Assembly: GCA_016210705.1 (NCBI GenBank)
Contig: JACQTR010000183.1
Span: forward strand, 1-36,092
Reading direction: 5' to 3'
From: Chloroflexota bacterium
GTDB taxonomy: Bacteria; Chloroflexota; Dehalococcoidia; JACQTR01
DNA: 36,092 nt
The translations under genes were made by a program, and so were the position numbers. Positions 1 through 20,700 of this stretch are shown here, piece by piece (within the stretch, counting starts at the first letter, position 1; each line of letters opens with the position of its first letter). The notes beneath the pieces were generated by a model. It saw only the letters and a list, made by a program, of their open reading frames with translations, did not search any database and had not been told where the DNA came from.

Positions 1-975
1 CAGCAGAGGCACATTAGCTGCCGCACCCCTTTCGATATTCCCATACTCCTTTTTCTGACGGGCGCAGTCTTAGGGGTCTTCCAGGCCACAGACCGTGCCC
101 TAAGTTGGGGAGCATTTCAAACGTGCCTGGCTGCGGTAATGCTCTATTATACCATCGTCAATTATCCAAGACCTCATCTTTTGATAGGGGGAGGAATTGC
201 GGTTACTTCCCTTTTGGCTGGCATAGTAACGGTTGTGGGCTTTAGCAGCGGCATGTCCCCCGGCTCCGGGGCGAATAGTCTAAGCTCTTGGGTTGCTAGC
301 TCCCTACGCGTTCTCCCCCAGTTCCCCAGGCTTCCAGGCCAGACTGAGGCTCCCAACCTTTTAGTCCATGGCCTACTCCTTACATTACTCGTCTCTTTTT
401 TAATATTGGCTGGCTCCGGCCTTTTTGCTAGGCGGATAGCTATTAGGATAACATTTGGGATGCTGAGTTTGGTCTTGCTGGCCATGCTGGTCCCCGCTGG
501 AGGGCAGGCCTACGAGCGTCTAGTGAACGGTACGACCATCAGAGTAAGAATGGACGTGTGGCAGAATTCTATCCTCATGGCAAAGGATTCTTGGTTAACA
601 GGCATAGGTCTTGGCCACTTTCCACTGGCATCCCCAGACTTCTTCCCTGGCCGAAAGCTTACCATACCGCATAATGGATATTTGGAACTCCTTCTCAATT
701 ACGGGATTCTGGGAGCCACGGCGGGTTTGTATGCCTCCGTCGTTGTGGCCAGACTCTTTTGGGACATTCTGCGTTGCGCCAGGGGGCATCCTTGGTTTGG
801 ATTTGCCCTTGGCCTTTTGGCAGCCTTCTTGGGCACCGCCTTTATGGCTATTTTCGAAAGCTCACCAATGGGAATTCCTGCAGCACGGATGGGAAGATAT
901 TTCTATACAGTATCGCCCTTGCCCTGGATGTTGGGTGGTGCCTTGGTCGTTGTCCACCGGCTGGTAACAAAATAG
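1..975 (+). CDS. O-antigen ligase / Wzy_C-family polytopic membrane protein, 5' end cut by the window edge
   Basis: Frame 1 is open from base 1 (no stop before the ATG at 139), so the ORF enters from the left. It is multi-TM and carries the Wzy_C-like signature GIGLGHF...IPHNGYLELLLNYGILG. Confidence 0.75.
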   Translation, partial: QQRHISCRTPFDIPILLFLTGAVLGVFQATDRALSWGAFQTCLAAVMLYYTIVNYPRPHLLIGGGIAVTSLLAGIVTVVGFSSGMSPGSGANSLSSWVASSLRVLPQFPRLPGQTEAPNLLVHGLLLTLLVSFLILAGSGLFARRIAIRITFGMLSLVLLAMLVPAGGQAYERLVNGTTIRVRMDVWQNSILMAKDSWLTGIGLGHFPLASPDFFPGRKLTIPHNGYLELLLNYGILGATAGLYASVVVARLFWDILRCARGHPWFGFALGLLAAFLGTAFMAIFESSPMGIPAARMGRYFYTVSPLPWMLGGALVVVHRLVTK

Positions 976-5812: not shown

Positions 5813-6542
5813 CGAGCATAAGCCCATACTTTCCGACTGGACCGAATACTTTCAGCGGCGGAAAGTAACTCTATTTTCAGAAGCGATTGGGTTAGAGAAG
5901 TTCTTTCGCGCCATAACGCAATTTGTCCCGGAAAAGACCAGCATCTTGGAAGTGGGGTTTGGCACTGGACTACCCGCCATTATGCTAACCGAGATGGGAT
6001 ATCAGGTCACCGCTATAGACATAGACAGCGGGCTAGCCAGGTCGCTATACCAGAAAAAGAGGGGGCTAGCTTCGCATCTCAATGTGATGAGGGCGGATAT
6101 GTTCCATTTACCTTTCAAAGATAACTCCTTCTACGCTGTAATCTCCCAAGGTGTTCTAGAGCACTTTCCTGAACAAGATATTTGCCGCGCCCTTAGCGAA
6201 CAGCGAAGAGTCGCTTCTCAACTAGTGATCTTAGATGTGCCCAATGACCGTTTCCCCCAAGATGCCGGGGTATTGCCTGGAAGCCATCTGGACTGGCAGC
6301 CTCGGAGCCGGCAGAACTGGAAAGCTATCATCCAGGAATGTGGGTTATCTCCTAAATACGAGTATGGAGTAGGATTAAGGCCGGGCAGATTTTGGCACTA
6401 TCTCTATTTTGCCTTGCCTTACGTCTTCCACTACTGGGATAGGATGAGGACAAGGCGTCCTTATTCCATGTTGGGCTGCTGGTTCGGCAGTATCAACGGG
6501 TTTGTGGCAAAGGTGAGCAAATCTGAATTCCATAATAGATGA
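5712..6542 (+). CDS. Class I SAM-dependent methyltransferase
   Basis: Motif I ILEVGFGTGLP and a Methyltransf_11-like core (GVLEHFPE). The ATG at 5712 overlaps Wzx by 101 nt. TTG 5799 (AGGA 6 nt upstream, 14-nt overlap) is a more likely start. Confidence 0.8.
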   Translation: MSLTNFTLQAYTRISMTVLQIWPSQTGLKLRNLSEHKPILSDWTEYFQRRKVTLFSEAIGLEKFFRAITQFVPEKTSILEVGFGTGLPAIMLTEMGYQVTAIDIDSGLARSLYQKKRGLASHLNVMRADMFHLPFKDNSFYAVISQGVLEHFPEQDICRALSEQRRVASQLVILDVPNDRFPQDAGVLPGSHLDWQPRSRQNWKAIIQECGLSPKYEYGVGLRPGRFWHYLYFALPYVFHYWDRMRTRRPYSMLGCWFGSINGFVAKVSKSEFHNR

Positions 6543-6554
6543 GGAGTGTCTAAC

Positions 6555-7328
6555 ATGGATGCGGGCAGGAGCAGAGGCAAACGCCTATACATGGGACTGG
6601 GAATGCCTATCAGCTACAAACCTAAGAATAGGCTTGCCTCGTTACTGGACATACGTTTTTCCTTAAAGTCTGTGTTGCTAAACAGGCTGCCCTCCTTTGG
6701 GTATAAGCTATTCGAAGTATTCATGGGTGAGAGAGTAGTAGAGTATGCCTTTGTGCACTCCAACATACTCATGGAGACCAAGCAACGGATCCTTGATGTG
6801 GGATCGTATGGGAGCGTGTTGCCTGTTGAGCTGGCCTGCTTTGGGCACAAAGTTTATTCCGTGGATGTGCTGGCTTACCCTCTGGAACACCCAAATCTTA
6901 CCTTTGTCCAGGGAGATATCTATAATATTCCATTCCCAGACAATTTCTTCGATACAGTCACGGCGGTATCAACCGTGGAGCATGTAGGGCTGGGCCGATA
7001 CGGAGACCCCCTCCATCCCGATGGAGACAGAAGAGCTATTTTGGAAATGATCAGAGTCCTAAAAAAAGGAGGGAAGGCAATAATCACCGTTCCCTTTGGC
7101 GAGAGGACTGTGTCATATCACCGTGGAGTAGCCATGAACAGAGTTTACGACCTCCCTTCTTTGGAGCAGTTACTCGAAGGGCTGCAAATCCAAAAGAGGG
7201 TCATTTACGGTAAACAGGGAGGGTTTTGGATGCCGGTCACTCCGGAGCAGGCAGCCAATCTCAAGAGAGAGGACGCTACGGAGGAAAAATCCGTCGCGTT
7301 GCTGGTAGCGAGTAAAGGGCAAGGATGA
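6555..7328 (+). CDS. Class I SAM-dependent methyltransferase
   Basis: ILDVGSYGS motif I, VSTVEHVGLG, and LKKGGKAIITVPF. The ORF track opens at GTG 6546, but GAGGAG at 6541..6546 is placed correctly for ATG 6555. Confidence 0.75.
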   Translation: MDAGRSRGKRLYMGLGMPISYKPKNRLASLLDIRFSLKSVLLNRLPSFGYKLFEVFMGERVVEYAFVHSNILMETKQRILDVGSYGSVLPVELACFGHKVYSVDVLAYPLEHPNLTFVQGDIYNIPFPDNFFDTVTAVSTVEHVGLGRYGDPLHPDGDRRAILEMIRVLKKGGKAIITVPFGERTVSYHRGVAMNRVYDLPSLEQLLEGLQIQKRVIYGKQGGFWMPVTPEQAANLKREDATEEKSVALLVASKGQG

Positions 7329-8230
7329 AAAACCATCCCCTGGTGGCTTTGCTGGTTCCTGTCCACAATGGGTGGGAAGATACTCGTGAGTTCCTGGACT
7401 CCCTGCGCCGGGTAAGTTACCCCAATTTCAAGACCATCATCGTGGACGATGGCTCCACCGATGACACCGCTGAAATGCTGGCCGCAGATTACCCCGAGGT
7501 CATTGTAATCAAGGGCGATGGCAACCTGTGGTGGTCTCGATCGGTGAACATAGCTATAGAGAAGGCTTTGAAACTAGAGGCCGACTACGTCCTTCAGGTA
7601 GACAACGATACCGCGGTGGATAGGGAGTTCATTTCCACCCTGGTGGAGACAGCCCAAGAAAACCCCAACGCTATCATAACCTCCAAGTCCTACTGGTACG
7701 GACAGCCCGATAGGGTTTGGTTTGGAGGCGGTGAGATAGCCTGGTTACGAGGTGGGCTTAAGCAAACCGGTTGCGGCGATATAGATAGAGGTCAATTCAA
7801 CGAACAAAGCGATAGCCAGTGGGCAAGCATAGGCTTCCTCATCCCCATCCCCCTCTTTGCCGAGCTGGGGATGATAGATGCCAGGAGCTTCCCCCAGTAC
7901 TGGGCGGACGCTGACTTCACCTATCGGGCTTATAAGAAAGGGCACCGGGTAATTCTGGAGCCCCGAAGTCTCCTTTGGCACAAAGTTTCTTCCAGTGTGA
8001 GACACCGTATGCCTCAGAGAGCACCTTGGGCCCAGCTCCTTTATTTTCTGACCCATGTCCGCTCCAGATATAACCTAAAAGCCGCTTCATATTTCTATTG
8101 GCGTCATTGTCCGAAAGCGTTGCTCCCGTATGCTTTGGGGCGCTTCTATTTCCCTCTACTGAGAGGTTTCCTCGTCCGTCTGCTTTTCTTCTGGTATAAG
8201 CCCTGGTACCGGAGGCCCTGGGGACTATAA
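7325..8230 (+). CDS. Family 2 glycosyltransferase
   Basis: LVPVHNGWEDT...FKTIIVDDGSTDDT and the DxD-like VDNDT. ATGA overlap with the upstream methyltransferase. Confidence 0.85.
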   Translation: MKNHPLVALLVPVHNGWEDTREFLDSLRRVSYPNFKTIIVDDGSTDDTAEMLAADYPEVIVIKGDGNLWWSRSVNIAIEKALKLEADYVLQVDNDTAVDREFISTLVETAQENPNAIITSKSYWYGQPDRVWFGGGEIAWLRGGLKQTGCGDIDRGQFNEQSDSQWASIGFLIPIPLFAELGMIDARSFPQYWADADFTYRAYKKGHRVILEPRSLLWHKVSSSVRHRMPQRAPWAQLLYFLTHVRSRYNLKAASYFYWRHCPKALLPYALGRFYFPLLRGFLVRLLFFWYKPWYRRPWGL

Positions 8231-8234
8231 AGGC

Positions 8235-10466
8235 TTATTTATAGACTTGCGCCCGCCCGTTATCATAGACCTTCCCCTTGCCCTGGAGCAGACCGCTATC
8301 CGCAATGCTAAGGTAAATAGGCTCACCCAAGGGTACTAGCGGCGGCAGCCTCACCTCCCCACGCTCCACGTTAAACCCCCTCAAATACAGATAGGCACCA
8401 GGTGGCACCTCCGCCTTTCGGAAGAAACCTTGCATTTCAGCCTCGGTTTTCGGACGCTCCCAGCCACCCAGAACTATAATATTGGGCGCATCGGGATACC
8501 CCCAAAAAGTCACCACACCATTAACATCGGCATAGACCTGGGCCTCCGGTGACCCCAGATGTTTGGAGAGCCAGCGGGCGCCTCCCTCCTCGCGTCGATC
8601 GAAGCGGGCGAAGTCCACCTTTGGAGAGAGAGCAAAGGAACTGGGAATATCACCCACCGCCTGGAACACCCAGCCACTTTGGAATAAGAAATAGGGCACC
8701 AGGACAAGAAGCACAGCCGCCAGGGACAGGCGCTCCACTATATCCCGCGCCAGCCACCGACTGATTAGCTGAAATAAAAAGTCTATTCCCAAAACGAAAA
8801 AGGGCGAAAGCAGCAGCAAGCCTACGAAATATAGTCGGTCGGAGCGGAACCCTCCGGTGGTGAAAAAGGGGACGAAGGTCATCGCCAGCGATAGCAAACC
8901 GACAGCAGAAAGCAGAAGGTACAGAGAGGAAAATCCTGTCTCCCGCCGTCTAAGCACCTTTATCGCCATACCTAAGGCTCCTACGCCAATGAGCACCCTG
9001 GTGAAACGACTAAGGTCGGCTGCCAGTCTATACCATAATGAGGGTATCCTTAACGGAGCCATCCCTAGCTGCCGTAAGACACCTTGATCTGTGGACACAG
9101 GGTTAAGAAATTCGTTCAGGCTTTTATACATGTGATCTCCCCAGCGGATAATCTCTTCAAACATCGCCCCTTTCGCAGTATTCATGTACCAAGCGAAGGA
9201 TAATGCAAAGAAGAGAGCTACCAGAGTTCCGCTGAGGATTTCATGGCTATCGCCTGGCATATCATGGCCTGCCCCTCCGATTCGACCACCCGCTGGTCGC
9301 AGTCCAAGAAGTAGGGGTTTAACGGCCAGGGCCAACGCTAAGTAAATAAGCCATAGGTAGGTCATGCCGTAGTAAGAGATTACCATAGAGGCGCCGAAAA
9401 CAATGGTTAGGAACACTTTATCCCATGACCTTCTCTCGTCGGTCATGGTCAAGACAACAAGGACCGCAAAAAGCATGCCCATGCCCTGCTTGGCCAGCTC
9501 CGTGCCGGTGATATAGAAAGCAGGGAAGGCCATCAAAAAGAAGGAGGCCAGGAAAGCCTTGCGAGACTCTATCTGCCGACGGTAAAGGACATAAAGCCCC
9601 AGTGGCACCAAGGAGAAAAACAAGGGATATATTGCTTTGAAAAACCATATCCCGGAGATATCTAAAAAGCGGGTGTAAATAGTGGGCAGTATGGTAACCG
9701 ACAGAGTAATAGCGTATTGAGGGAACCCCGCTGTGGAGCTCCATAGAGAGTTTTGCTCCGTCAGTTTGTAAACCAGGTGTTCCATCCTTACATCCCACCC
9801 TACCAAATTGTCAGTTATCAGTGTCCTGTGGAGTAGTAGGGAGATAGCGATCAGAAGGACAGCTACCGGCAGCAGGCGCTGGGGTATGAATCGGCCCCAA
9901 GCAGCCAACACGACCACCATCGCTACCAGGGGAAACATTACCATGAATAGGATATTATTCTGCTGGAAGTTGAACTGTGCGGCTCCAGCAATGCTCAGAA
10001 GAGGGAGGATAAAGAGAAAAAGTAAGGGCAGCAGAGGGATTCTTTCTCCAACGGACCTCAGGGAGAATACAAAGCCCCGATCAATCCAGTAGCTCAGGCC
10101 CATTAAGAGTAGGACAGCAACGGTAAAGGTGGCAGAGAGAGATAGGAGGGATAGGGGCCGATAAACGCCTATCATAGGATACAACCAGTTGATCAGTAGA
10201 CCGATAAACATCAAAAAGGCCAAGCTCAGGCCGACAGCGTAGAGCAGGGCCTCCACGGGGCTCAGGCTACGGATACGGAGAATGCGAAGGAGCAAGAATC
10301 CGGGCACGAAAGTGAGGTAAACGAAGCCGATAAGCGTTCCTGCTACTGGCAAAGCATAACCTAGTAGGGCCAGGGCTACCACCACCAGGATGCCAATCTG
10401 GATGGCCAGAACCAAGTTAAGGAAGCGGCCTATTGGCCAGTCAATAGGGGGTCGCAAAAGCATCAT
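8235..10466 (-). CDS. Large polytopic membrane protein with a C-terminal soluble domain; GT-C-like glycosyltransferase/polymerase candidate (resembles the archaeal DUF2206 family)
   Basis: 743 aa with about 15 or more hydrophobic segments, followed by a roughly 150-aa hydrophilic C-terminus. The family name comes from recollection of this architecture, not from a search. Confidence 0.55.
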   Translation of the reverse strand: MMLLRPPIDWPIGRFLNLVLAIQIGILVVVALALLGYALPVAGTLIGFVYLTFVPGFLLLRILRIRSLSPVEALLYAVGLSLAFLMFIGLLINWLYPMIGVYRPLSLLSLSATFTVAVLLLMGLSYWIDRGFVFSLRSVGERIPLLPLLFLFILPLLSIAGAAQFNFQQNNILFMVMFPLVAMVVVLAAWGRFIPQRLLPVAVLLIAISLLLHRTLITDNLVGWDVRMEHLVYKLTEQNSLWSSTAGFPQYAITLSVTILPTIYTRFLDISGIWFFKAIYPLFFSLVPLGLYVLYRRQIESRKAFLASFFLMAFPAFYITGTELAKQGMGMLFAVLVVLTMTDERRSWDKVFLTIVFGASMVISYYGMTYLWLIYLALALAVKPLLLGLRPAGGRIGGAGHDMPGDSHEILSGTLVALFFALSFAWYMNTAKGAMFEEIIRWGDHMYKSLNEFLNPVSTDQGVLRQLGMAPLRIPSLWYRLAADLSRFTRVLIGVGALGMAIKVLRRRETGFSSLYLLLSAVGLLSLAMTFVPFFTTGGFRSDRLYFVGLLLLSPFFVLGIDFLFQLISRWLARDIVERLSLAAVLLVLVPYFLFQSGWVFQAVGDIPSSFALSPKVDFARFDRREEGGARWLSKHLGSPEAQVYADVNGVVTFWGYPDAPNIIVLGGWERPKTEAEMQGFFRKAEVPPGAYLYLRGFNVERGEVRLPPLVPLGEPIYLSIADSGLLQGKGKVYDNGRAQVYK

Positions 10467-10508
10467 GAAATTTTATCGCGGAACAGATACCAGCCGCCGG
10501 TTTCATCC

Positions 10509-11549
10509 TTAAGACTTCCGTGCCAGGATGGTAAACGGACCACTGAGGAAAGGCAATAGGAATTGCGGTGCCTTCCGCAGTAGAGGGGAGCGGAGCCTTA
10601 CCCAGGCCGTTTTCCAGGGATTTGGTGCCGCGAATCTGATGATCGATGAAGGAGGGGGCAAAAGACGGCACTGAAAGCCCAGAGACCTTAGCTGCCCTAT
10701 AAGCTGGAAGGGACTAAAGCCCAGTTCGGGAAATTCGCCGGTGTAGGGGTTTATACCTAGAAAGGACTTTCTTGAAGCCACCTTCCCGGTCTCCAGGAAC
10801 TGGCCTACCGCCTGCCTTATTTCTTCTCCCCATAACCCACGGGTTTTAATAGCAAGTTCTGTTACCGTTTTGCCATCCAGGATAGGGAAGGATTCCTGAA
10901 TTATCCTTTTCCTACCTTCCAGAGCCGATACCTTATCTACCGCTCTCCCATATTGAACCATATCCTTATCTATAGGCCCATATTCTGACCTTCGCCACTC
11001 CCTTCGGGTGCGAATTCGGCTAAGGGGGAACAGGTCATTGTTGCCGTCTTGAATATATAGCGTACCTCCGTCTTCCAGGACATCCTTAATCTTTTCTAAA
11101 AGCGATTTAGTATCTCTAATATGAGAAATGGCCTCTATCATAGTCACCACAGCAAATGAGCTAGGGGGCAAAGAATAAGTAAGGAAATCCCCCTGCTCTA
11201 TGTTGATGGCGCAGTCGGAGAATCTTTTTAGTATGACTCGGGCGGTTGACACCATCTCTTGGGAGACATCTATCCCTGTGGATAGACCAGAGCCTAGGAG
11301 ATAATAGCAGAGAAGCCTAAGCCCAAAGCCACAACCTATATCCAGCACCCGCCCTCCTTCCATCCGGCAAAGGTCAAAGACGGCCGCCGATTCCAAGAGG
11401 TATCTTTTAAGACCCAAGGGTGTCAGCATACGACTGCGCTTATAGTAGTAACCAAATAGGGGATCCGCCCCCTTTTCCAGGGCGGGATCAAGAAGAACTG
11501 ATGCCAGCCTTTCCAGAGCAGCCTGGATGTGCCTTTCTTCAGCCATCAT
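10509..11549 (-). CDS. Class I SAM-dependent methyltransferase with a C-terminal extension
   Basis: Motif I VLDIGCGFGLRL and LEDGGTLYIQD. ATGA overlap with the upstream GT4 stop. Confidence 0.8.
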   Translation of the reverse strand: MMAEERHIQAALERLASVLLDPALEKGADPLFGYYYKRSRMLTPLGLKRYLLESAAVFDLCRMEGGRVLDIGCGFGLRLLCYYLLGSGLSTGIDVSQEMVSTARVILKRFSDCAINIEQGDFLTYSLPPSSFAVVTMIEAISHIRDTKSLLEKIKDVLEDGGTLYIQDGNNDLFPLSRIRTRREWRRSEYGPIDKDMVQYGRAVDKVSALEGRKRIIQESFPILDGKTVTELAIKTRGLWGEEIRQAVGQFLETGKVASRKSFLGINPYTGEFPELGFSPFQLIGQLRSLGFQCRLLPPPSSIIRFAAPNPWKTAWVRLRSPLLRKAPQFLLPFLSGPFTILARKS

Positions 11550-12628
11550 CCTTTACTCAAAATCTTCTGGTACACTGCCAGGGTCTTTTGGGCAATGACA
11601 TCCCAGGCGTATTCCGTTTCCAGCTTGCGCTGGCCCGCCTGTCCCATCCGGCGGCGGAGGTCATCGTCCCGCAATAGCTTAACCACCGCCTCGGCCAGGG
11701 CCTGGGGGTCCCTAGGGGCCACAACCAGACCCGTTTCCCCATGGTTCACCATCTCGGGCAGGCCACCCACATTGGTGGCCACCACCGGCTTCCCGAATCC
11801 GTAAGCCACCTGGGCAACAGCCGTTTGAGAAGCATCCACATAAGGCAGTACCACCACCTTACACCTCTGAAAAAGCTCCGCCCCATCTTCAAAGCTGATA
11901 AATCGGTTGTAAACGAGAAAGTCTTCCGGGTTAACCATAAGCCGCCTATACTTGCCGATGTCTCCCTCCCCAGCAATAGCCACCCTGACGCCGGGCATCT
12001 CTCTGGCTATAAGTGGCTGGGCCCTAATCAGGTATTCCAGCCCTTTATAATCCCGGATCCTGCCAAAAAAGAGTACAATATTTTCTTCCAGCACATTTTC
12101 CCGGTGCCAGGGCTTGAAGGCCGAGTAGTGCTCCCCCTGGGGTACAACGTTTACCTTTTCTTCAGGCATAGCCAGCTTGCCAACCATCAATTTCTTTAGG
12201 GACTCAGCATGGACGATTACCTGCCTAGAGTGCCTTCTCGCCCAAAAATCCATGACCCGGGTTGATAGTCTCTCTTCCCCCAGGTGGGGCTCCGGGTCAT
12301 GGAAAGTAGTAACCACGGGATAGTGGCTCAGTCGGCTCAGCAGGGCCAGCCAGTACCAGAAATGAGCCGTCTGGCTGTGAATGATGTCCGGATGAAAGCT
12401 GTTAATTTGGCGGACCACTTGAGCCACTAGGCTAGTATTGGCGGGATAGAATCGAGAAGAAGCGGGCAGAAGAAGCAGCTTTACTCCCTTGCCTATAGTA
12501 CCCAAAAGTTCAGAAGACAAACCCCGGCTTGTAATTAATGCCACCTCCTCTGTCATAGGGTAAATGGCATTGCTTAACTGAATGGCGTAGTTCCCTAGGC
12601 CGTGGGGAGTTATGCCCAGCACGCGCAA
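11546..12628 (-). CDS. Family 4 glycosyltransferase (GT-B)
   Basis: C-terminal Glycos_transf_1 signature VLPYVDASQ...GKPVVATNVGGLPEMVNHGETGLVV. TTG start with AAGGAGA upstream. Confidence 0.85.
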   Translation of the reverse strand: MRVLGITPHGLGNYAIQLSNAIYPMTEEVALITSRGLSSELLGTIGKGVKLLLLPASSRFYPANTSLVAQVVRQINSFHPDIIHSQTAHFWYWLALLSRLSHYPVVTTFHDPEPHLGEERLSTRVMDFWARRHSRQVIVHAESLKKLMVGKLAMPEEKVNVVPQGEHYSAFKPWHRENVLEENIVLFFGRIRDYKGLEYLIRAQPLIAREMPGVRVAIAGEGDIGKYRRLMVNPEDFLVYNRFISFEDGAELFQRCKVVVLPYVDASQTAVAQVAYGFGKPVVATNVGGLPEMVNHGETGLVVAPRDPQALAEAVVKLLRDDDLRRRMGQAGQRKLETEYAWDVIAQKTLAVYQKILSKG

Positions 12629-12648
12629 AGTTTATGAGGTCTCCTTTA

Positions 12649-12852
12649 TTATACTATCCCCAACTTGGCCTTTATTACTGACAAGGCTGCTCGAATATCC
12701 TTATCGGAGTGTACCAATTCCACCTCACCACTGACCTTTAATATATATTCCTCCGTGCCCTCAGGGCTACGCACATATACTTTTCCTTCCGAGACTACGA
12801 TATTGCCATGTCCCTCTGCGGGCGTCCTAGCGTACAGATCAATTAAATTCAT
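12649..12852 (-). CDS. Hypothetical 67-aa soluble protein
   Basis: The ATG overlaps the stop of the upstream gene (ATGA). GAGGAGGGAGGA lies directly upstream. I recognise no motif. Confidence 0.65.
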   Translation of the reverse strand: MNLIDLYARTPAEGHGNIVVSEGKVYVRSPEGTEEYILKVSGEVELVHSDKDIRAALSVIKAKLGIV

Positions 12853-13604
12853 TCCTCCCTCCTCAATCGGAACCCAATCTCATCCACATAGGCTAAGTCG
12901 GTGACGACAGTTCCTGCTAGTGACAACGCCCACCCCGTGCCCATAATAGTGAGGCCCAAAATCTGCGCAGCACCATTAGCAGGAGTACCTGATCCATAGG
13001 CGTGTCTCCCTTGCCATGTCCCTAACACATAGGCCGCTTTGTCCAAATACCAGTAAGAGCCGTTCCCGCTGCCCTGTCTTTTGAATATCCAGCTAACAGC
13101 CCCCAGACCAGCATGAGTAAGAACAACGGGAAACTTTGCGGTTGTGCCATATGTTCCCACCGCCAGCCAAACCTGGCAAAGGCTGACCACCGCGTTGCCT
13201 TGGTCAACCCAGAGGTACACTTTTATTTGGTTGGCCGTGCCCAGGCTGAAATCGGCGGCAACGTTGGCCCCAGCGTACTGGGCACCGGTGGCATTCCAGA
13301 TTCCTGTGGCCTTCTCCACCCCATTGACCTCAATGGAGTAAAAGAGTTGGGTAGCCGCGGGGCTGCCGCCAAAGCTATCTATGGTTACCTGGAGTCGCAA
13401 GCCTAACTGGGGCACAGCAATCTGGCTATTCGTGATGGCAGGGACCGTCAGATTGGTTGAATAATCGGGCGAGGCTTGTTTGGCTGTAGCCACCACCGAC
13501 TTCGTCCCCGGTTCCAGATCTCCTGAGTCCTGTATTCCGGGGGTGTAGGTTATTTGCTCTATCATCTCCACTGAGGCCAGAGCGCCAGCAAACCTTAAAG
13601 TCAT
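12849..13604 (-). CDS. Hypothetical 251-aa beta-rich Gly/Thr/Ala/Val-rich protein with no signal peptide or TM segment
   Basis: ATG 13604 is preceded by GGAGGAGG (13609..13616) at 4-nt spacing. The ORF track opens at GTG 13619, which would place that SD inside the coding sequence. I recognise no family. Confidence 0.7.
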   Translation of the reverse strand: MTLRFAGALASVEMIEQITYTPGIQDSGDLEPGTKSVVATAKQASPDYSTNLTVPAITNSQIAVPQLGLRLQVTIDSFGGSPAATQLFYSIEVNGVEKATGIWNATGAQYAGANVAADFSLGTANQIKVYLWVDQGNAVVSLCQVWLAVGTYGTTAKFPVVLTHAGLGAVSWIFKRQGSGNGSYWYLDKAAYVLGTWQGRHAYGSGTPANGAAQILGLTIMGTGWALSLAGTVVTDLAYVDEIGFRLRREE

Positions 13605-13633
13605 TTTTCCTCCTCCCACCCAAACTAACCCCG

Positions 13634-13663
13634 ATAATAGAACTAACGTTCTCTATTTGTCAA
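13634..13663 (-). promoter_or_regulatory. sigma70-type promoter candidate, TTGACA - 18 nt - TATTAT
   Basis: On the minus strand, the consensus -35 TTGACA is at 13663..13658 and the -10 TATTAT is at 13639..13634. It sits in the 94-nt gap upstream of the 251-aa gene. Confidence 0.5.
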
Positions 13664-13713
13664 GGCCGTACTGTCATCCCCACCGAAGCCAGCAATTATC
13701 CCTTCGTTCTCTC

Positions 13714-15297
13714 CTACATAAGAAGCTTTCCTTGTTTTTTCAGCTCCCGCACCCTTCGCCTGATCAGTTCCCTTTCTCCCACCGCCTGATGGGATATCCC
13801 CCGAGTTGCCGCAACGCTTCCCTTTTTGAACAGTTCTTTGAGCACCTGGCCATCCATGTCCTCAGGAACAGGCAATCCCAACAGGTGCAGAACCGTAGGC
13901 GCTATGTCATAGACCTGGGCGCCCTCTATCCTCCCGCCAACATCAAAGTCCCCCCCTTGGGCAATTAAAATACCCTCCCCACGATGGGATCCACTAAAGC
14001 TGGTATTGGGCGCGGGGGAGCGAAATATGCTCTTATTAAAAGTATAATCTACACTGCAACTGAAGTCGTTCAAGGCGAAAATTATATCAGGGGCGAGTTC
14101 CAGGTATGGCCCCGAATAGAGGTCTTCCCGGTGGCGAACCACTACTGTTATACCCAGTTGTGAGCATACTTCCTCGAGTCTATCGGTGATTTCTTCCCCT
14201 AGCCTCCCGCGTTCTGAGGCCGAGTCTATAGCTGGGCTCAAAAAGATTCTGCCTGTAGAGGGGTCATGGATGTTAGCGAAGGCCAGGGTCCGTGTCATAT
14301 CTACTTGCTGGATAAAAGAAGCCGGGCGAGCCCTGGCCATCCAGCGCACTTTGTCGCGCATCGGCCGCGGTGCCAGGGTCCATATTTTAGTAAGGGAGCG
14401 ACGGATATCCCAAAGGATGCCGCTTGGTCGCCAAGCCCTGTGAAGATAGCCCTCCCCTTCCAGCCAGGAGTTGGTAAAAAAAGATTGGCTATGAGGCCCA
14501 AAACCATGGTCGGAAACTACCAGGATATTTCCTTTTTCATCAATGCCCTCCATCACCCGGCCCACAATGTCGTCAACCTGCTGCCACATTTGGTCAAAAA
14601 GAGGACGATAATGCTCTGCAGCTTGCCTTTGAAAACAGGGGTGGGCCTCGTCCAAATACTTCCACATAAAATGCTGCATGAAATCGGTGGCCGATATTAC
14701 TACGGTGAGAATATCTATATCTCGGGACAGGAATAGCTCCACAGCCTTTTTATTTATGTTTAGCAAGCGCATCACATCGCTAACGAAAGCAGAGGAACGG
14801 TGAGCATAACGAGGGCTATTCCAGTGAATATGCACCTCATAACCGTTACAGTGGCTGAAAAGCTCATCCTTAAGCTCCCTGGGGTAAGTAAAATCCCTAT
14901 CGAGAAAGGAACCCAAGCCGCCGACCATATATCCATTTATTGGATAAGGGGGGAACAGCCCTGGGAAATTCAAGATACCAACTTTAAACCCTGCTTGGGA
15001 AAGATAATCCCAATAGGCCCCCGATTTTCTAATGGCGCTGGAGTTCCATGCCTTCAGCTCCAGGCCACCCTTCACCGTGGGATTAAGAAAATCAAATACG
15101 CCGGTCTTTCCTGGGTTCTTGCCCGTAGCCACAGAAGTCCATGCAGCCGCGCTAACTGGCGGGAAGGTGCTATGAAGATAACCCCAGGAACCTTCTTTCA
15201 GGAGCTTACCTAAGTAAGGCAACCTGCCATCGGCAATTAATGGGTTTAAGATATCAAAAGTTGCGCCGTCCAGCCCGATCACCGCTAGTTTTACCAC
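13714..15297 (-). CDS. Alkaline-phosphatase superfamily protein (type I phosphodiesterase/nucleotide pyrophosphatase-like)
   Basis: VIGLDGATFD (metal Asp), the nucleophile region HSTFPPVSAAAWTSVATGKNPGKTG, VVSDHGFGPH, and a distal GSHRGEG. No TM segment and no signal peptide. GTG start with AAGGTGA upstream. Confidence 0.8.
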   Translation of the reverse strand: MVKLAVIGLDGATFDILNPLIADGRLPYLGKLLKEGSWGYLHSTFPPVSAAAWTSVATGKNPGKTGVFDFLNPTVKGGLELKAWNSSAIRKSGAYWDYLSQAGFKVGILNFPGLFPPYPINGYMVGGLGSFLDRDFTYPRELKDELFSHCNGYEVHIHWNSPRYAHRSSAFVSDVMRLLNINKKAVELFLSRDIDILTVVISATDFMQHFMWKYLDEAHPCFQRQAAEHYRPLFDQMWQQVDDIVGRVMEGIDEKGNILVVSDHGFGPHSQSFFTNSWLEGEGYLHRAWRPSGILWDIRRSLTKIWTLAPRPMRDKVRWMARARPASFIQQVDMTRTLAFANIHDPSTGRIFLSPAIDSASERGRLGEEITDRLEEVCSQLGITVVVRHREDLYSGPYLELAPDIIFALNDFSCSVDYTFNKSIFRSPAPNTSFSGSHRGEGILIAQGGDFDVGGRIEGAQVYDIAPTVLHLLGLPVPEDMDGQVLKELFKKGSVAATRGISHQAVGERELIRRRVRELKKQGKLLM

Positions 15298-15336
15298 GGC
15301 TCACCTTTCATCTGAGATCTGCACTGTTTCACAGGA

Positions 15337-16113
15337 TCAGCCCAATTCCCCTCGGATAGCGCGGAACATGTCCTGTGGAGTCTCAATGTCGTAATCGACA
15401 TTGACGGTAATCAGCAAGGCGTTCTCGTGATGATCGCCTTTTAGCGCTCCCTCTGACGTTTTCTCTGGCAACGTCCGCACTTTTGCTTCGCCAAAGGCGC
15501 AAAACCCGTGGTCGGAGACCACCACCAGCTCGTTTTGTCCGCTGTCCAGAAAGTTAGAATCGAAGACAAGCTCCCCGATCTTTGCGTCTAATCTTCTATA
15601 CCAGTCAAAAACACACTCCTCGCCCCAATGGAAGTGTTGAACTCTGTCTAAAAAGGTATAAACAGAGATGAGCAAATCCAAGTCTTCCCACAGAAGCTGC
15701 TTAGTCTCCTCGGTGACTCTATAGAGTTCCTCTTCCCACTCTCCCTCATTGGTGGGCAATCCGAAACCCACTGGCTTGAAATTAACCCCGAAGGAAAAGG
15801 GCGGCACCACGAAAGGAACATTCAGGGCTTTGGCCCTTTTCCCCTCTCGGTGCAAAATATCCCAAATGAAGTCCACTTTTATATCCTGCCTTTTTACCAG
15901 CTCGCCGTTAACAACAAAACTCTCATGCCGGTGCTCCTCTGGGGTCTTTCCTGAGAACATACTGCACCAGACCGAGGGTGAGATGGGCTTCTCGGTGAGG
16001 ACTAACTCTTTACACTTACCACTTTGGCATAGACGTTGGAAGTTATTCAGCCGAGACAAATTGGGCCTTATCACGCTCCAAGTGGCAGCATCGATCCCCA
16101 AAACAAAAATCAC
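15337..16113 (-). CDS. Short alkaline-phosphatase/NPP-fold protein (258 aa)
   Basis: [40 protein letters not shown] and GDHHE reproduce the AlkP-core metal and nucleophile positions. The GTG start overlaps the cysN stop (GTGA). Confidence 0.7.
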
Positions 16114-17321
16114 TCCAAAGCCTCCAGCACCACCCCAACCCCAATATGTCGGTTACCTTTCACCAGAACAAACCTGCCCAGCTCAGGAATATCAGAGAAC
16201 CTCTCCACTACCAGAGGCTCCGTGGCCAGAAGAACAGTGGCCGCTTCATTCTCACCTATCTCCGATGGTCCGGCCTCGACTATCGCTCCGGTCTCCGCGC
16301 TTATTTTCTCCTTTATCTCCCTAACCTCACACTTTACTCTATTAGTCCCGCAGCGGAGCTCCAACTCCTCTCCCTTCCCCAAACTCCCATCCAATAAAAC
16401 TACCTCGCCCCAAAATCGCCGTACCGCCATAGGGGCACTTCCCACCAAGCCGAGCACATCCCCGCGCTTAGCTACCCCATCGATTACAAGGCCTACGCTG
16501 TCTCCCGATTGCGCCCGCTCTTGGTCGGCGGGAAACACCCTTATCCGCTCTATCTTAGTCCTCGTATCCGAGGGTTGAACAACTATTTCATCTCCTATTT
16601 TCATCAAGCCAGCAATCACTCTGCCCACGATAATTTCTTGCGATTCAACCCGATATTCCCCCTGAACCACAAACCTTAAGGGCTTCGGCTCCAGACTCAA
16701 GTTCACTTGATCTAACGCTTCTATGAGCGTAGGGCCCCGATACCACTTCATCCGCTGCGATGACCGATAGATGTTTTCTCCTTCTGCTGCTGAGGCTGGT
16801 ATGAACGACACATCGGAGTAGCCAAGGGAAGTCAAAGCCGCGCCCACGTCTTCCCTAACAGTGCGGAAGGACTCTTCACTGTAGTCCAGGACATCCATTT
16901 TGTTTACGACAACGAAGAGCCGCTTTATCCCCAGCATTTTGAGCAGAAAGGCGTGTCTCCTAGTCTGCTCCTGAACGCCTTCCTGGGCTGAAACAACCAA
17001 CACAGCCAGCTCGGCGTGAGAGGCCCCAGTCAACATGTTCTTTATGAATTCCTTGTGTCCTGGTACATCAGCAATGCTATATAGGGCTTTCTTACTCTTA
17101 AACATCACCTCGGTGGTATCTATGGTTCTCTCTTCCTTCAGCTCGTCCTCAAAAGAGTCTATAAAATAAGCGAATTCAAAACGCTTCTTATATTCCTCGG
17201 CCAACTGTTGTATCTCCGCCAGCCGACCTTCTCTTATGCTCTCAGAATCGTAAAGCAGCCTTCCTATTAAGGTAGATTTGCCATGGTCAATATGGCCAGC
17301 AACGACTACGTTCACCTTCAT
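16110..17321 (-). CDS. cysN: Sulfate adenylyltransferase subunit 1 (CysN-type EF-Tu-like GTPase), with no fused APS-kinase domain
   Basis: G1 [10 protein letters not shown]3 DVPGH and G4 NKMD motifs, followed by beta-barrel domains. It is 403 aa and sits directly downstream of cysD. Confidence 0.85.
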
Positions 17322-17330
17322 TCGATTACC

Positions 17331-18131
17331 TCACATATACCCCAAAGCGCGAAGCTTCTGCATAGTAAACGCCTTCTCTTTGTCCTGCGCCCTTCCAGAC
17401 CTCTCCGCAGTCTTGCTCACTTCCAGCTCTTCCACTATCTCATCTATAGTTTTCGAGGTGGACTCTATAGGAAAGGTACATGGCTCACAACCCAAGCTAC
17501 GATACCTTTTACCATCCTTAGCAAAGTACATCTGGTTCACCGGGATATTCTCTTGCCTCACATATTGCCAGATATCCAGCTCCCTCCAATGCAGGATGGG
17601 GTGAACTCTAATGTGGGTGCTTTCCCCAGCAAGGCTTTGGTATTGGTCCCACATTTCTAGGGGCTGATCCTTATAATTCCATCGGAAATCCTCGTCTCGG
17701 GGCGAAAAATACCTCTCCTTAGCCCTTATTCCATGCTCATCTCTCCTTATGGCCAGTATAAGGGCATCGAAGCCATTTTCCTCTACGCATTCCTTCAAGG
17801 CCTGAGTTTTCAATCTAGTACAACATTCAAACTTTCCATTGCCCGGCCCCACGCCCTCCTTGTTCGCCTGCTCGTTTCTGATTATCAATAAACGAAGGCC
17901 CCACTCGTTGGCGATCCTGTCCCTGAAGCTGTACATGGGTTTAAATTTGTAACCGGTATCTATGTGGATAACTGGAAAAGGAATCTCGCCGAAAAAGGCT
18001 TTTCGGCATAGCCAGAGGACAGCGGTACTATCCTTACCGGTACTCCACAGCACTGCTGGCCGCTGAAACTCGGCGTAGGCCTCTCTTAATATATAGACGC
18101 TTCTATTCTCAAGGTCTTTTAAGTCTAGCAT
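17331..18131 (-). CDS. cysD: Sulfate adenylyltransferase subunit 2 (CysD, PP-loop ATP pyrophosphatase fold)
   Basis: PP-loop STGKDS; HIDTGYKF, RRDEHGIRAKERYFSPRD, HPILHWRELDIWQY; C-terminal tail ...KLRALGYM. Confidence 0.9.
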   Translation of the reverse strand: MLDLKDLENRSVYILREAYAEFQRPAVLWSTGKDSTAVLWLCRKAFFGEIPFPVIHIDTGYKFKPMYSFRDRIANEWGLRLLIIRNEQANKEGVGPGNGKFECCTRLKTQALKECVEENGFDALILAIRRDEHGIRAKERYFSPRDEDFRWNYKDQPLEMWDQYQSLAGESTHIRVHPILHWRELDIWQYVRQENIPVNQMYFAKDGKRYRSLGCEPCTFPIESTSKTIDEIVEELEVSKTAERSGRAQDKEKAFTMQKLRALGYM

Positions 18132-18176
18132 ATGCCACCTCTTTCCGAGAGAAATGATTTGAGCAAGGTAAAAATT

Positions 18177-18401
18177 CTATTTCAAATAGCCCAGTGCCTT
18201 CAACCTTTTCTTCACCATCTCCTCCTCTTCTTCACTGAAACTCACCTCTGTCTCATCTTCTTTAAGGACTTCCTCAAGGACAAATACAACATATTCGTCT
18301 ACCGAAAGGAAGTCAGCATGGCTCATCCTTTCCCCTATTCTCCGATAAAGGTCAGCCGGCAGCGATACAGTCCTTTTTTCATCTTGCGGTTTCACCGTCA
18401 C
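18177..18401 (-). CDS. Small ribbon-helix-helix (CopG-like) protein candidate with an acidic linker and a basic C-terminal tail
   Basis: N-terminal RTVSLPADLYRRIGERM...SVDEYVVFVLEEVL fits a strand-helix-helix pattern. AAGGAGGG lies upstream. GTG starts are possible at 18401 or 18395. Confidence 0.5.
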   Translation of the reverse strand: MTVKPQDEKRTVSLPADLYRRIGERMSHADFLSVDEYVVFVLEEVLKEDETEVSFSEEEEEMVKKRLKALGYLK

Positions 18402-19558
18402 TAACCCTCCTTGGCCTTGGCATCGATTAATATCCCATGGTTCCTTGCCATCCGCCCACTATACGCCTCCAGGCATCTTTGGGCCACGGCATCCCAGGTA
18501 AACCTCTCCTGGACAACATCCCTAGCCCTTTGCCCCATCTTCCTAGCTACTTCTGGGTTTTTTAGAAGGCAGGCTATCCGCTCCTTTAGTACTTCTGGTT
18601 GGCCTGAGGGGACGATAAAACCCGTCTCACCATCCTGGATGACCTCCGGCAAGCCAGCCACTTCGGTGCCAATAACCGTGGTGCCACAAGCCATGGACTC
18701 TAGCAACACAGCTGGCATTAGATCGGATTGGGGGAAGGTGCTCCACCACTTTTGCGTATAGACGGAGGGCATAACTGTAACTACGGCGGTGTTGTAATGG
18801 TGCGCCAGGGCCTGGTCATCCTGACGCCCCAGAAAGATGACTTTGCCACCCTTATCCCGATCCTGTAGGGCTCGGAGATACTGCTGGCTCTGCGACGGAC
18901 CAGCCACATATAGCCTGCCATCCAGATCCGCCACAGCATCAATGAGATGCTCAACGCCCTTAATCGGGTGGAGGCGGCCCACGAAGAGTACCTTTCCCTT
19001 TTCTTTTTCACCACTAAGGGGGCGAAATTTGTGGGTATCCGTGCCCACATAGATGGCCCGGCACTCCCTGCCATATTTAGAGAACATCCTGAACATGTAA
19101 CGACAGACCAGAAGGTATTCATCCACCCATTTGCCCAGGAAGGGAAAGGGCCTAGTGAAGGCCAAGCCTCTGCCACCATGGTAAGAGGCAAAAATAGGCT
19201 TATCTTTGAAATGGCAATAAGCGACGGCGATGGCAGATACCAAGGTGCCAAACTGGTTGATATGCACTAAATCACTTTCTCGGAGGATTTTCAAAAATGT
19301 CAGGGATAAAGGCAAAGGATTTTGCCGATCAAAGAGAGGGCGCAGGAAATAAAAGGCGGGAAACTCCTCAACGGTCAGGGTATTGGAGACTCGGTTTGTC
19401 ACCCTCCCGGAAGCGAAAGACACCAGGGTAACCTGGGCATAACTGCTCAGCGCCTGGGCCAGTTCCCAAGGATACCGCGCCCCTCCTCCCGTCTGGTACT
19501 TAAACCAGGTGGGAGCGACCAGGGCGACCTTCAACTCCTTTTTCTGAGTCATGCTCAC
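18401..19558 (-). CDS. Family 4 glycosyltransferase (GT-B)
   Basis: LLESMACGTTVIGTEVAGLPEVIQDGETGFIV signature. Confidence 0.85.
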   Translation of the reverse strand: MSMTQKKELKVALVAPTWFKYQTGGGARYPWELAQALSSYAQVTLVSFASGRVTNRVSNTLTVEEFPAFYFLRPLFDRQNPLPLSLTFLKILRESDLVHINQFGTLVSAIAVAYCHFKDKPIFASYHGGRGLAFTRPFPFLGKWVDEYLLVCRYMFRMFSKYGRECRAIYVGTDTHKFRPLSGEKEKGKVLFVGRLHPIKGVEHLIDAVADLDGRLYVAGPSQSQQYLRALQDRDKGGKVIFLGRQDDQALAHHYNTAVVTVMPSVYTQKWWSTFPQSDLMPAVLLESMACGTTVIGTEVAGLPEVIQDGETGFIVPSGQPEVLKERIACLLKNPEVARKMGQRARDVVQERFTWDAVAQRCLEAYSGRMARNHGILIDAKAKEG

Positions 19559-19569
19559 CGTCTCTCGCC

Positions 19570-20700
19570 TTAAAAATCCCGGCTCCGTTCCCTAAGCTCA
19601 AAAAATACCTGTCGCGTCAGCCCGGGATTAAACATATGCAGCCACTGTCGAAGAAGGCTTACGGTAAACTTCCGCTCGCTAAGTTTCTCAGCCATTGCCC
19701 CCAGCAGTGTCCACCAGCCATAGCGGTGAGGGGTGTGGAAGCCCTTACGAACCAGCCTGGCAGGCTCTCCAGGACTAATCCCTAGATTAGCCGAGAGCAA
19801 GAGGAGCCTTTCGGGGACAAAGCCGTTGGCAGCCTGATGCAGGGCAGCGGCTAGGGCCAGAAAGGTCCGAGTGGCTCTCACTAGCCGATGGCGCCTTACC
19901 TCTACCAGGAAAAGGTTCAATTCCTCTTCTGACAATGATGCCAGGTGGTAGAGAAAAGTGTAATAATCCCCCAACCGATAGGACTGCTCCACTAGACCAT
20001 GAATTATGACGACGACCATCTCCAGCTCCGGCGCCAGGGTGGCCACTTTATCCCCGCTGGCAAGTGGCATACGGATCACCTTTTCTCGCCACAAATCCTT
20101 ATCCATCCACACAATGTAGCTGGTGCCAAACTCTCTTTGTAAGTCTAAATCCACACCTGTTACAGGGTCTATAAAGTCAGTACCAGTAGCACTGACATGC
20201 TTTGTACCATAAGTAGGGGTCGATAATCTCTTTACTGCCACGTGATGGTCAGAGTCACCGGAAAGAGATATATCACGTATCAGATGGGGAAGCTCCGGCT
20301 CATATCCTGCTTCAAGCAGTGTCCTGATGGCTATTTCATACATTTGCCCATCCCCCAACACCATCACATCGGCGTCTTTGCCCCACGAGGGATAGGGTCT
20401 CAGCGTCTTAAAAAAAGTATGCTTAACCCCTGCCTCCCTGAGTAGCCTATCTGCCTTGGCCATAGCCTTTTCCTGGTTCTGGCAGCGTACGAGCTCAGCC
20501 TCATATTCCGCCTTCAACTCCTTAAGGCGTCCGGTCCGCTCCAGGGACTCCAAATAGAGCAGCCCTATTTTGTTTCTCTGAGCTACGTCGTAAAGGTTCT
20601 GGGACTCCTTTACTCTTCCAAAGTCTGAAGCTCCGAAGGGCGAGCCGATACTTCTTAATAGGGCTATGGTAGCATTGGATGAAAGCTTGGTGGTGGTCAT
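19570..20700 (-). CDS. Uncharacterised nucleotidyltransferase-family protein (NTP_transf_5-like, pol-beta NTase fold)
   Basis: AGVKHTFFKTLRPYPSWGKDADVMVLGD...LLEAGYE matches the G..R..D.D..V...L...GY pattern of that family. ATGA overlap with the upstream gene. Confidence 0.55.
   Translation of the reverse strand: MTTTKLSSNATIALLRSIGSPFGASDFGRVKESQNLYDVAQRNKIGLLYLESLERTGRLKELKAEYEAELVRCQNQEKAMAKADRLLREAGVKHTFFKTLRPYPSWGKDADVMVLGDGQMYEIAIRTLLEAGYEPELPHLIRDISLSGDSDHHVAVKRLSTPTYGTKHVSATGTDFIDPVTGVDLDLQREFGTSYIVWMDKDLWREKVIRMPLASGDKVATLAPELEMVVVIIHGLVEQSYRLGDYYTFLYHLASLSEEELNLFLVEVRRHRLVRATRTFLALAAALHQAANGFVPERLLLLSANLGISPGEPARLVRKGFHTPHRYGWWTLLGAMAEKLSERKFTVSLLRQWLHMFNPGLTRQVFFELRERSRDF

Follow-up and report, generated by a model that had tools for sequence, protein, structure and literature searches.

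What are two proteins of no recognizable family, preceded by strong expression signals, doing in the middle of a surface-glycan operon? The question is raised by a 36,092-nucleotide (nt) stretch of DNA from a Chloroflexota bacterium (Dehalococcoidia, lineage JACQTR01; contig JACQTR010000183.1, analyzed over its full length and called the window here), in which a 251-amino-acid (aa) protein, HY664_06945, and a 67-aa protein are encoded side by side on the minus strand. An initial annotation, made from the sequence alone, had proposed an independently promoted and abundant pair of unknown proteins, possibly a lectin-like or fiber component with a small chaperone, or a protein substrate or scaffold of the glycan machinery. 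The answer that we favor, at a little better than even confidence, is that the pair is a stand-alone phage virion spike module carried in the chromosome: a glycan-matched fiber and its partner under repressor control, probably inducible by the SOS response. The elements of this cassette in the window are as follows.

12849..13604, minus strand: 251-aa open reading frame (ORF), with its ATG at 13604 and its stop codon ending at 12849
13609..13617, minus strand: Shine-Dalgarno sequence GGGAGGAGG of the 251-aa gene, 5 bases ahead of the ATG at 13604, read from the sequence
12649..12852, minus strand: 67-aa ORF, joined to the stop of the 251-aa ORF by an ATGA overlap and translationally coupled
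12853..12864, minus strand: Shine-Dalgarno run GAGGAGGGAGGA of the 67-aa gene, abutting its ATG, read from the sequence
13634..13663, minus strand: sigma-70-type promoter, TTGACA at 13663-13658, an 18-nt spacer and TATTAT at 13639-13634, matching 11/12 consensus positions
13638..13653: palindromic operator of the LexA/Cheo-box type, GAGAACGTTAGTTCTA in the minus-strand reading, with its core GAAC-N4-GTTC at 13640-13651

The coordinates given initially for both ORFs, their ATGA coupling and both Shine-Dalgarno runs are confirmed, and the promoter described there is present; the features it had missed are the palindrome at 13640-13651 and the lack of a terminator-like site in the 20 nt that separate the cassette from the next gene, encoding a family 4 glycosyltransferase (GT4). 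For the large ORF, an alternative GTG start at 13619 would give 256 aa. The run GAGGAGGGAGGA doubles as coding sequence for RREE, the last codons of the 251-aa gene, and the C-terminal ...LR(S/R)E(Q/E) of the large-protein family is kept even where no partner gene lies downstream. The GAAC-N4-GTTC core, which is the sole perfect box in the window, occupies the promoter spacer and abuts the −10 hexamer.

In line with their description as unknown, neither protein had a match in Pfam, NCBIfam, PHROGs or PADLOC, and a profile search of PDB chain sequences with the 251-aa family gave no relevant match. A word-indexed search returned 53 homologues of the 251-aa protein, nearly all of 240-260 aa, whose named sources are Chloroflexi/Dehalococcoidia metagenome-assembled genomes (MAGs), most sources being unnamed; an exhaustive profile search found 276 cluster representatives. 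Mean pairwise identity in the family is 56% over positions 13-152 and 24% over positions 153-251. The AlphaFold2 model built from the family alignment (predicted local distance difference test score, pLDDT, 89.3; predicted template modeling score, pTM, 0.86) is all-beta and consists of two stacked beta-sandwiches, with a mean pLDDT of 57 over residues 1-10. The protein is thus laid out in three parts.

Residues 1-12: disordered N-terminal peptide
Residues ~13-152: conserved proximal beta-sandwich
Residues ~153-251: hypervariable distal beta-sandwich

Foldseek matches of this model include phage minor tail proteins, C1q-type knobs, a cyanophage tail-fiber CBD, tandem CBM22 (family 22 carbohydrate-binding modules, CBMs), BcsB and PNGase. 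Some homologues are long fusions in which the ~250-aa module is C-terminal, and their N-terminal parts comprise CBM_4_9 (a Pfam match) and, judged by eye, fibrous helical, beta-helix-like and BNR-propeller-like regions. These fusions to fiber, beta-helix, BNR and CBM domains, together with the paired homologues in phage virion modules described below, fit the early idea of a lectin-like or fiber protein with a small partner. Among individual homologues, P0072 contains two full modules in tandem (513 aa), in P0084 (520 aa, Ala-rich) the module is N-terminal, and P0165 has a CBM_4_9 domain at residues 54-171 that precedes most of the module.

The carbohydrate-related matches (tandem CBM22, the BcsB carbohydrate-binding domain and PNGase) would also suit a cytoplasmic reader of glycans, that is, a tandem CBM-like module that acts on a lipid-linked glycan or its cap in the style of the C-terminal CBM of Wzt and thereby regulates chain length or export. 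The many methyltransferase genes nearby and the predicted cytoplasmic location of the protein are consistent with such a role, but the loci rely on Wzx/Wzy rather than on ABC export, and phage module homologues, a co-varying base protein and an SOS-type operator would all be left unexplained; we regard this explanation as highly improbable.

A second alternative starts from the composition of the 251-aa protein (A 12.7%, G 12.0%, T 9.2%, V 8.8%). Composition and Kyte-Doolittle analysis bear out the claim that it is rich in Gly, Thr, Ala and Val and has neither a signal peptide nor a transmembrane (TM) segment: no 19-residue stretch has a mean hydropathy above 1.5, and there is no lipobox. If the protein were an envelope glycoprotein or a structural, S-layer-like protein, the 251-aa product would be the substrate or scaffold of glycosylation and the 67-aa product its chaperone. 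The beta-rich, Thr/Ser-rich composition, the position in a glycan operon with strong expression signals, and the proteinaceous nature of Dehalococcoidia envelopes would all suit this view. Against it stand the missing signal peptide, TM segment and lipobox, the homologues that are genes of phage structural modules (some of them fused to fiber or beta-helix domains), and a repressor-type operator that fits a constitutive envelope protein poorly. We consider it very unlikely, and found nothing indicating that either protein is a substrate or scaffold of the glycan machinery.

In the structural modules of uncultivated siphophages, as well as in that of a prophage- or gene transfer agent (GTA)-like element of Dehalococcoidia, members of both families are encoded side by side, a presence that explains the pair's origin. 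The usual position of the pair in phages is directly after the gene for the HK97-fold major capsid protein (MCP), behind a small beta protein of 106-112 aa. Two families of such small proteins, s106 (106-108 aa) and s112 (112 aa), are candidate bases for the putative fiber. The gene orders in phage and phage-like loci are listed below.

L009 and L014-L017 (IMG/VR contigs): scaffold, HK97-type MCP (phrog_212, E 4e-73), 112-aa beta protein, family protein, 67-72-aa partner, connectors
L008: 761-aa fusion, 64-aa partner, Neck1, head-tail adaptor, tail terminator, tail tube and Phage_tail_T chaperone (family matches), then a 485-aa ORF taken as the tape measure
L019 (36-kb phage): MCP (phrog_371), 193-aa protein, 377-aa fusion, partner, then connectors and a 1047-aa tape measure, assigned by order and size
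L021, L023, L024 and L029/L030/L032: s106 (106-108 aa), family protein and 76-80-aa partner, at the end of the structural block
L029/L030/L032: large terminase (TerL), portal, scaffold, MCP and later a 107-aa protein, 272-aa family protein and 80-aa partner, in a Dehalococcoidia chromosome

The last of these is assigned to a Dehalococcoidia/Chloroflexota chromosome (L029/L032) on the basis of a neighboring sigma-factor cluster with NCBI MAG names. Since none of 50,697 GenBank phages was matched in tblastn by the window protein or by a phage-type protein, the family is known from uncultivated phages only. We rejected a clean split of the sequences into a cell clade and a phage clade, as the phage-type subtype is also common in glycan loci that have the promoter and box.

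Several other identities were considered and rejected. A double-jelly-roll capsid protein is at odds with the HK97-type MCPs of the carrier phages (phrog_212, phrog_371, Phage_capsid), and the corresponding structural match, PBCV-1 Vp54, reached only a query-normalized template modeling score (TMq) of 0.19-0.23; the HK97 capsids and weak structural matches likewise speak against a cellular double-jelly-roll enzyme of the GH172/DUF2961 type. A distal tail protein (Dit) was rejected since the model lacks the helix of the Dit N-domain and the gene adjoins that of the MCP. For a lectin- or colicin-type SOS-induced bacteriocin with its immunity protein, there was no match to toxin, immunity or lysis families, the partner has neither a TM segment nor a lipobox, and the homologues lie inside phage structural operons.

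Chromosomal copies of the cassette have quite different neighbors. Glycan genes flank it in all ten of the distinct chromosomal loci that we inspected gene by gene, the flanking genes encoding glycosyltransferases of families 1, 2 and 4 (GT1, GT2, GT4), Wzx, DUF1616 proteins, FkbM and other methyltransferases, epimerases, PS_pyruv_trans and B12-binding radical S-adenosylmethionine (rSAM) proteins. We extended this to 60 further metagenomic loci, with automated scoring of glycan and phage neighbors and of the promoter and box. Glycan genes were found in 27 of these loci, none of which had phage genes, and phage hallmark genes in seven, none of which had glycan genes. The predicted co-occurrence of the pair with glycan loci therefore stands for the ten inspected and 27 surveyed loci, but it is not exclusive, as the pair also occurs in phage structural modules. 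In cells, the cassette takes the form of s106 plus fiber, fiber plus partner (the window type), all three genes, or the fiber alone.

Two further observations concern these loci. A DUF1616 membrane protein is encoded near the cassette, usually beside the Wzx flippase (L003:13067-13894, L005:13435-14280, L032:1422-1874, window:34639-35328 and many survey loci). At L013 (~7030-7230, a Dehalococcoidales MAG), a 65-aa Cys-rich ORF, MKIEQVVSFKSCLTCGYRRF..., comes first after the promoter and box, ahead of the s106 and fiber genes; this ORF had no match in Pfam and is a possible fourth component of the cassette.

Glycan loci are hot spots of horizontal transfer, and since phage homologues exist, the pair might be an inert prophage leftover or moron that was dropped into a recombination-prone glycan locus and has no present function in the cell. 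At one locus, L031, the partner is retained while all that is left of the large gene is a remnant of 25 codons. However, intact ORFs occur in dozens of divergent loci, with the N-terminal half held at 56% identity; most glycan-context loci conserve the promoter and operator, which phage loci lack; no phage hallmark gene adjoins any glycan-context copy; and a detached base gene has a promoter and box of its own. An inert leftover thus appears quite unlikely to us. The remnant itself lies in a glycan locus (L031:1-520), in which the intact partner gene is 71% identical to that of the window and the last 25 codons of the large gene abut a methyltransferase fragment on the opposite strand; it reflects either decay of the cassette or an assembly join at the contig end.

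The expression signals of the cassette were compared across these loci. Within 8000-20000 of the window, TTGACA-18-TATTAT is the top-scoring promoter site, although the number of promoter-like sites there (9 observed versus 11.2 expected) is not above chance; we take the promoter to be real because it is conserved at the same place in homologous loci, and not because of the scan. Other cellular loci have a TTGACx-16..19-TAnnnT promoter at the equivalent place, so the cassette is a conserved unit and, as initially proposed, independently promoted. In the survey, we scored whether the 150 nt upstream contained this promoter together with a GAAC-N4-GTTC box of no more than one mismatch. Promoter and box were present in 18/27 glycan-context loci, which is far above chance given a background box rate of ~6% per 200 nt, and two more had palindromes with two mismatches; none of the seven phage-context loci had either. 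Among 31 cassette promoters, which were picked because a box had already been seen there and are not an unbiased sample, 31/31 have a box with 0-1 mismatch, 23-101 nt ahead of the start codon and with the consensus TAGAACAWWTGTTCTA. In ~180 kb of cellular loci we found seven perfect boxes, six of them in cassette promoters and one ahead of a SocA_Panacea-type gene, while the phage loci contain a single perfect box (L028), with a GC-rich center. Where the s106 gene is detached, 4 kb from the fiber gene, it is preceded by a separate promoter and box of the same kind (L002 at 5895-5906; L012 at 5843), and the parts of the cassette thus form a small regulon.

Lying over the spacer and −10 element, or between the −10 element and the ribosome-binding site, the operator is placed as is typical of a repressor site, and we are nearly certain that the palindrome is a real repressor operator. 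As no regulator gene is conserved beside the cassettes, a global factor is favored. LexA is the candidate that we put somewhat above even odds, with TAGAACGTTAGTTCTA as its candidate target at the cassette promoter. The LexA of Dehalococcoides reportedly binds GAAC-N4-GTTC. The same motif is the LexA site of Gram-positive-type bacteria (PMC3323433). The cassette operator shares with this LexA/Cheo box its half-sites, spacing, AT-rich center and repressor-like overlap with the promoter, whereas the target here would be a cassette of virion-type proteins and not a repair gene. No lexA gene was found in the fetched loci by tblastn with an approximate Bacillus subtilis LexA query. With a conserved repressor-type operator on its promoter, the cassette is probably expressed conditionally and not constitutively, which qualifies the high abundance claimed initially.

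The one perfect box of the cellular loci outside the cassette promoters, at L003:15715-15726 (14-bp palindrome AGAACATATGTTCT), lies just ahead of the SocA_Panacea (antitoxin-type) gene, so that a toxin-antitoxin-like pair may be under the control of the same regulator.

How the fiber might be mounted is suggested by its N-terminal peptide. Fibers with a KYHSD-type peptide occurred with s106 in 20 cases and in four others were on cut contigs without a visible base. Those with an LxLxG-type peptide occurred with s112 in five cases, never with s106, and in 15 cases, including that of the window, had no base nearby. The two peptide types and the two base types are thus perfectly partitioned, and this co-variation leads us to infer that the peptide docks onto the small base protein. 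Profile comparison detected no homology between s106 and s112, and neither profile had a relevant match among PDB chain sequences.

For LxLxG-type host fibers, the window's type, the matching s112 base was seen in phage genomes only, so that a host fiber could compete for a phage base. This would suit an anti-phage decoy or receptor mask, in which the SOS-controlled fiber, often with its base, poisons the assembly of phages, whether incoming or induced, or coats the glycan receptors of kin after lysis. Such a role would draw on the same phage homology, operator and glycan linkage as the spike module, and the second perfect box in L003 precedes an antitoxin-type SocA_Panacea gene. On the other hand, PADLOC gave no match, no defense genes neighbor the cassette in the window, masking would require lysis as the protein has no secretion signal, and the idea is purely inferential. 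We judge a decoy or mask to be rather unlikely.

The 67-aa partner was found to belong to a family of its own. A single-sequence search returned only the protein itself, and a profile search was required to find the family of 72 members (cluster representatives). The window protein is 44% identical to the partner in phage locus L009 and 32% identical to that in L008. Its AlphaFold2 model is confident (pLDDT 95.7), with two short helices, a four-strand meander and a C-terminal helix, and a Foldseek search against PDB found no significant neighbor (best E 0.36). Nor was there a match to tail-fiber chaperones (Caudo_TAP/Tfa-like) in Pfam, PHROG or NCBIfam; with a confident fold that is unmatched, the chaperone role first suggested for this protein found no support.

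Returning to the spike module, the reading that we prefer, we envisage the following. The 251-aa protein would be a virion fiber or knob whose N-terminal peptide docks to the base protein and whose hypervariable distal domain binds the surface glycan specified by the surrounding locus. Its cognate partner, acting in assembly or as an adaptor, would be the 67-aa protein. The cassette would stay silent as long as its repressor is bound; release of the repressor, most likely in the SOS response, would lead to production in large amounts, in the window probably together with the products of three downstream glycan genes. By analogy with the head spike of the Rhodobacter capsulatus GTA (RcGTA), the most likely role in the host would be that of an adhesion fiber matched to the cell's own glycan and mounted on phage or phage-like particles after induction.

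Several observations weigh against this proposal. The window contains neither a base-protein gene nor phage genes. The Foldseek matches of the 251-aa model are at the level of fold class only, with template modeling (TM) scores of 0.2-0.37 to generic jelly rolls. The position of the module varies among phages: it follows the MCP in L009, L014-L017 and L019 but closes the structural block in L021 and L029, so gene order fixes neither head nor tail attachment. Promoter and box are missing from one high-GC lineage (L041, L043, L046, L047) and from a small number of further loci. The outer bases of the cassette operator are TA..TA, making a 16-bp palindrome, versus the CGAAC..GTTCG of the Bacillus LexA consensus. 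Finally, the promoter in the window may chiefly serve the downstream glycan genes.

Those genes, and the modification genes upstream of the cassette, are the following.

11546..12628, minus strand: GT4 glycosyltransferase, with a TTG start at 12628, 20 nt past the 67-aa stop
10509-11549: methyltransferase, downstream of the GT4 gene
8235-10466: DUF2206 membrane protein, downstream of the methyltransferase gene
13714-15297 and 15337-16113: AlkP/phosphodiesterase-type genes
16110-17321: CysN-like gene
17331-18131: PAPS_reduct/CysD-like gene, downstream of a 269-nt gap

The 20 nt from the 67-aa stop to the GT4 start contain no terminator-like site, and with so short a gap the GT4, methyltransferase and DUF2206 genes could be read from the cassette promoter; they are probably co-transcribed with the cassette. 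The families of the flanking genes confirm the glycan operon context: GT4, GT2, methyltransferases, Wzx, Wzy_C, DUF2206, epimerases, DegT, radical-SAM/B12, CysD/CysN and AlkP-like proteins. The sulfate-activation genes and the two AlkP/phosphodiesterase-type genes suggest that the glycan is sulfated or carries phospho-modifications. In the window as a whole, neither Rfam nor tRNA scans gave a match. The gap upstream of the 251-aa gene (13605..13713, 109 nt) had been described as the only sizeable one in the array, which is not so: that at 18132..18400 is larger (269 nt). This larger gap is noncoding and has a weak promoter-like site, TTGAAG-18-TAGAAT, and no Rfam match.

At the far end of the array lie genes for a YdjM-family membrane protein (35325-35864), the DUF1616 protein (34639-35328) and a CAAX-protease/SH3/LysM protein (33134-34666). 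YdjM is LexA regulated in Escherichia coli; no GAAC box was found within 228 nt upstream of the ydjM-like gene. The rSAM/B12 ORF (24234-25928) and a GT2 ORF (25736-26686) overlap by 193 nt (25736-25928); the rSAM gene probably begins further downstream than its listed TTG, and several other genes in the array, which overlap by 29-71 nt, likely have listed starts that are too far upstream.

Candidate particles for the spike cassettes include the compact terminase-to-fiber element of L032 (L032:6142-17637; the same element as in L029 and L030), a block of ~11.5 kb within a 670-kb Dehalococcoidia contig. It comprises a 75-aa ORF, large terminase, SPP1-type portal, scaffold, HK97 capsid, nine more ORFs, among them s106, fiber and partner, and a 62-aa ORF. 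On either side of the block, gene calling revealed neither an integrase or repressor gene nor genes for replication or lysis, and no GAAC box was found ahead of the particle gene cluster. The capsid protein of the block is one of 69 sequences that cluster at an identity of at least 90%. The block looks like a GTA-like element or a stripped prophage, and from its gene content a GTA-like particle in Dehalococcoidia is conceivable.

This analysis provides a first context and a working model for two unannotated families (276 and 72 cluster representatives), and describes a phage-type spike module that has come, repeatedly or long ago, to lie in the chromosome, tied to surface-sugar genes and under an apparent DNA-damage-type switch. 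We know of host-encoded virion parts linked to receptor-glycan genes only from RcGTA, and a parallel in the hard-to-culture Dehalococcoidia would open tests of DNA exchange or phage management; it would also supply a ready collection of natural lectins, each of which goes with a particular glycan locus. In the broadest version, which we think unlikely, the SOS-controlled spike cassettes of Chloroflexota glycan loci would be a particle adhesion module inherited with its receptor, and a second, independent design of the RcGTA kind; this would point to GTA-like exchange or host-directed retargeting of phages in Chloroflexota, neither of which is known there to our knowledge.

Three known types of system resemble the cassette. 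With C1q/TNF-like and CBM-type jelly-roll knobs it has in common an all-beta sandwich fold, and the top Foldseek matches of this type are Gordonia phage minor tail proteins, C1q-domain phage proteins and the tail-fiber CBD of cyanophage A-1(L); however, at TM scores of 0.2-0.37 and identities of 6-16%, the resemblance is one of fold class only. Phage tail fibers with chaperones (Tfa/Caudo_TAP, T4 gp57A) likewise have a conserved proximal part and a hypervariable distal beta domain, a translationally coupled small gene downstream, and fibrous, beta-helix and CBM fusions. They differ in that neither protein here has a Pfam or PHROG match to tail fibers or chaperones, the fold of the partner is unmatched, and the cassette gene mostly adjoins the capsid gene instead of following the tape measure.

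The third is the head spike of RcGTA. In this particle, a small jellyroll base forms a pentamer on capsid vertices and holds a single fiber, anchored by residues 2-10, the rest of which is flexible, two-domain, beta-rich, lectin-like and capsule binding; the spike genes lie apart from the main particle cluster, adjoining capsule polysaccharide genes with which they are co-regulated (PMC7296036, PMC10218006). Like RcGTA (base Rcc01079 and head fiber Rcc01080; ghsA/ghsB), the cassette family combines a small beta- or jellyroll-type base with a two-domain, beta-rich fiber of ~250-325 aa. A short N-terminal peptide of the fiber would be the docking element here too, judging from its disorder and its co-variation with the base. 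Chromosomal copies lie apart from the main particle genes and beside glycan genes in every cellular locus inspected, with glycan binding predicted, and co-regulation with those genes would be a further parallel. The cassette adjoins the capsid gene in most phage loci, a gene order that would fit capsid attachment. Profile searches of PDB with the fiber, s106 and s112 detected no sequence similarity to the RcGTA proteins, and for Rcc01080 the comparison is a weak one because only residues 2-10 were resolved in the reconstruction (PMC7296036). The window, moreover, has no base gene. What is new relative to RcGTA is the phylum (Chloroflexota versus Alphaproteobacteria), proteins that are not homologous, a third component in the form of the 61-80-aa partner, and a probable SOS-type switch, with control apparently through a GAAC-N4-GTTC palindrome in place of quorum sensing or CtrA. 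The relation between the two systems is one of analogy in architecture and not of family membership.

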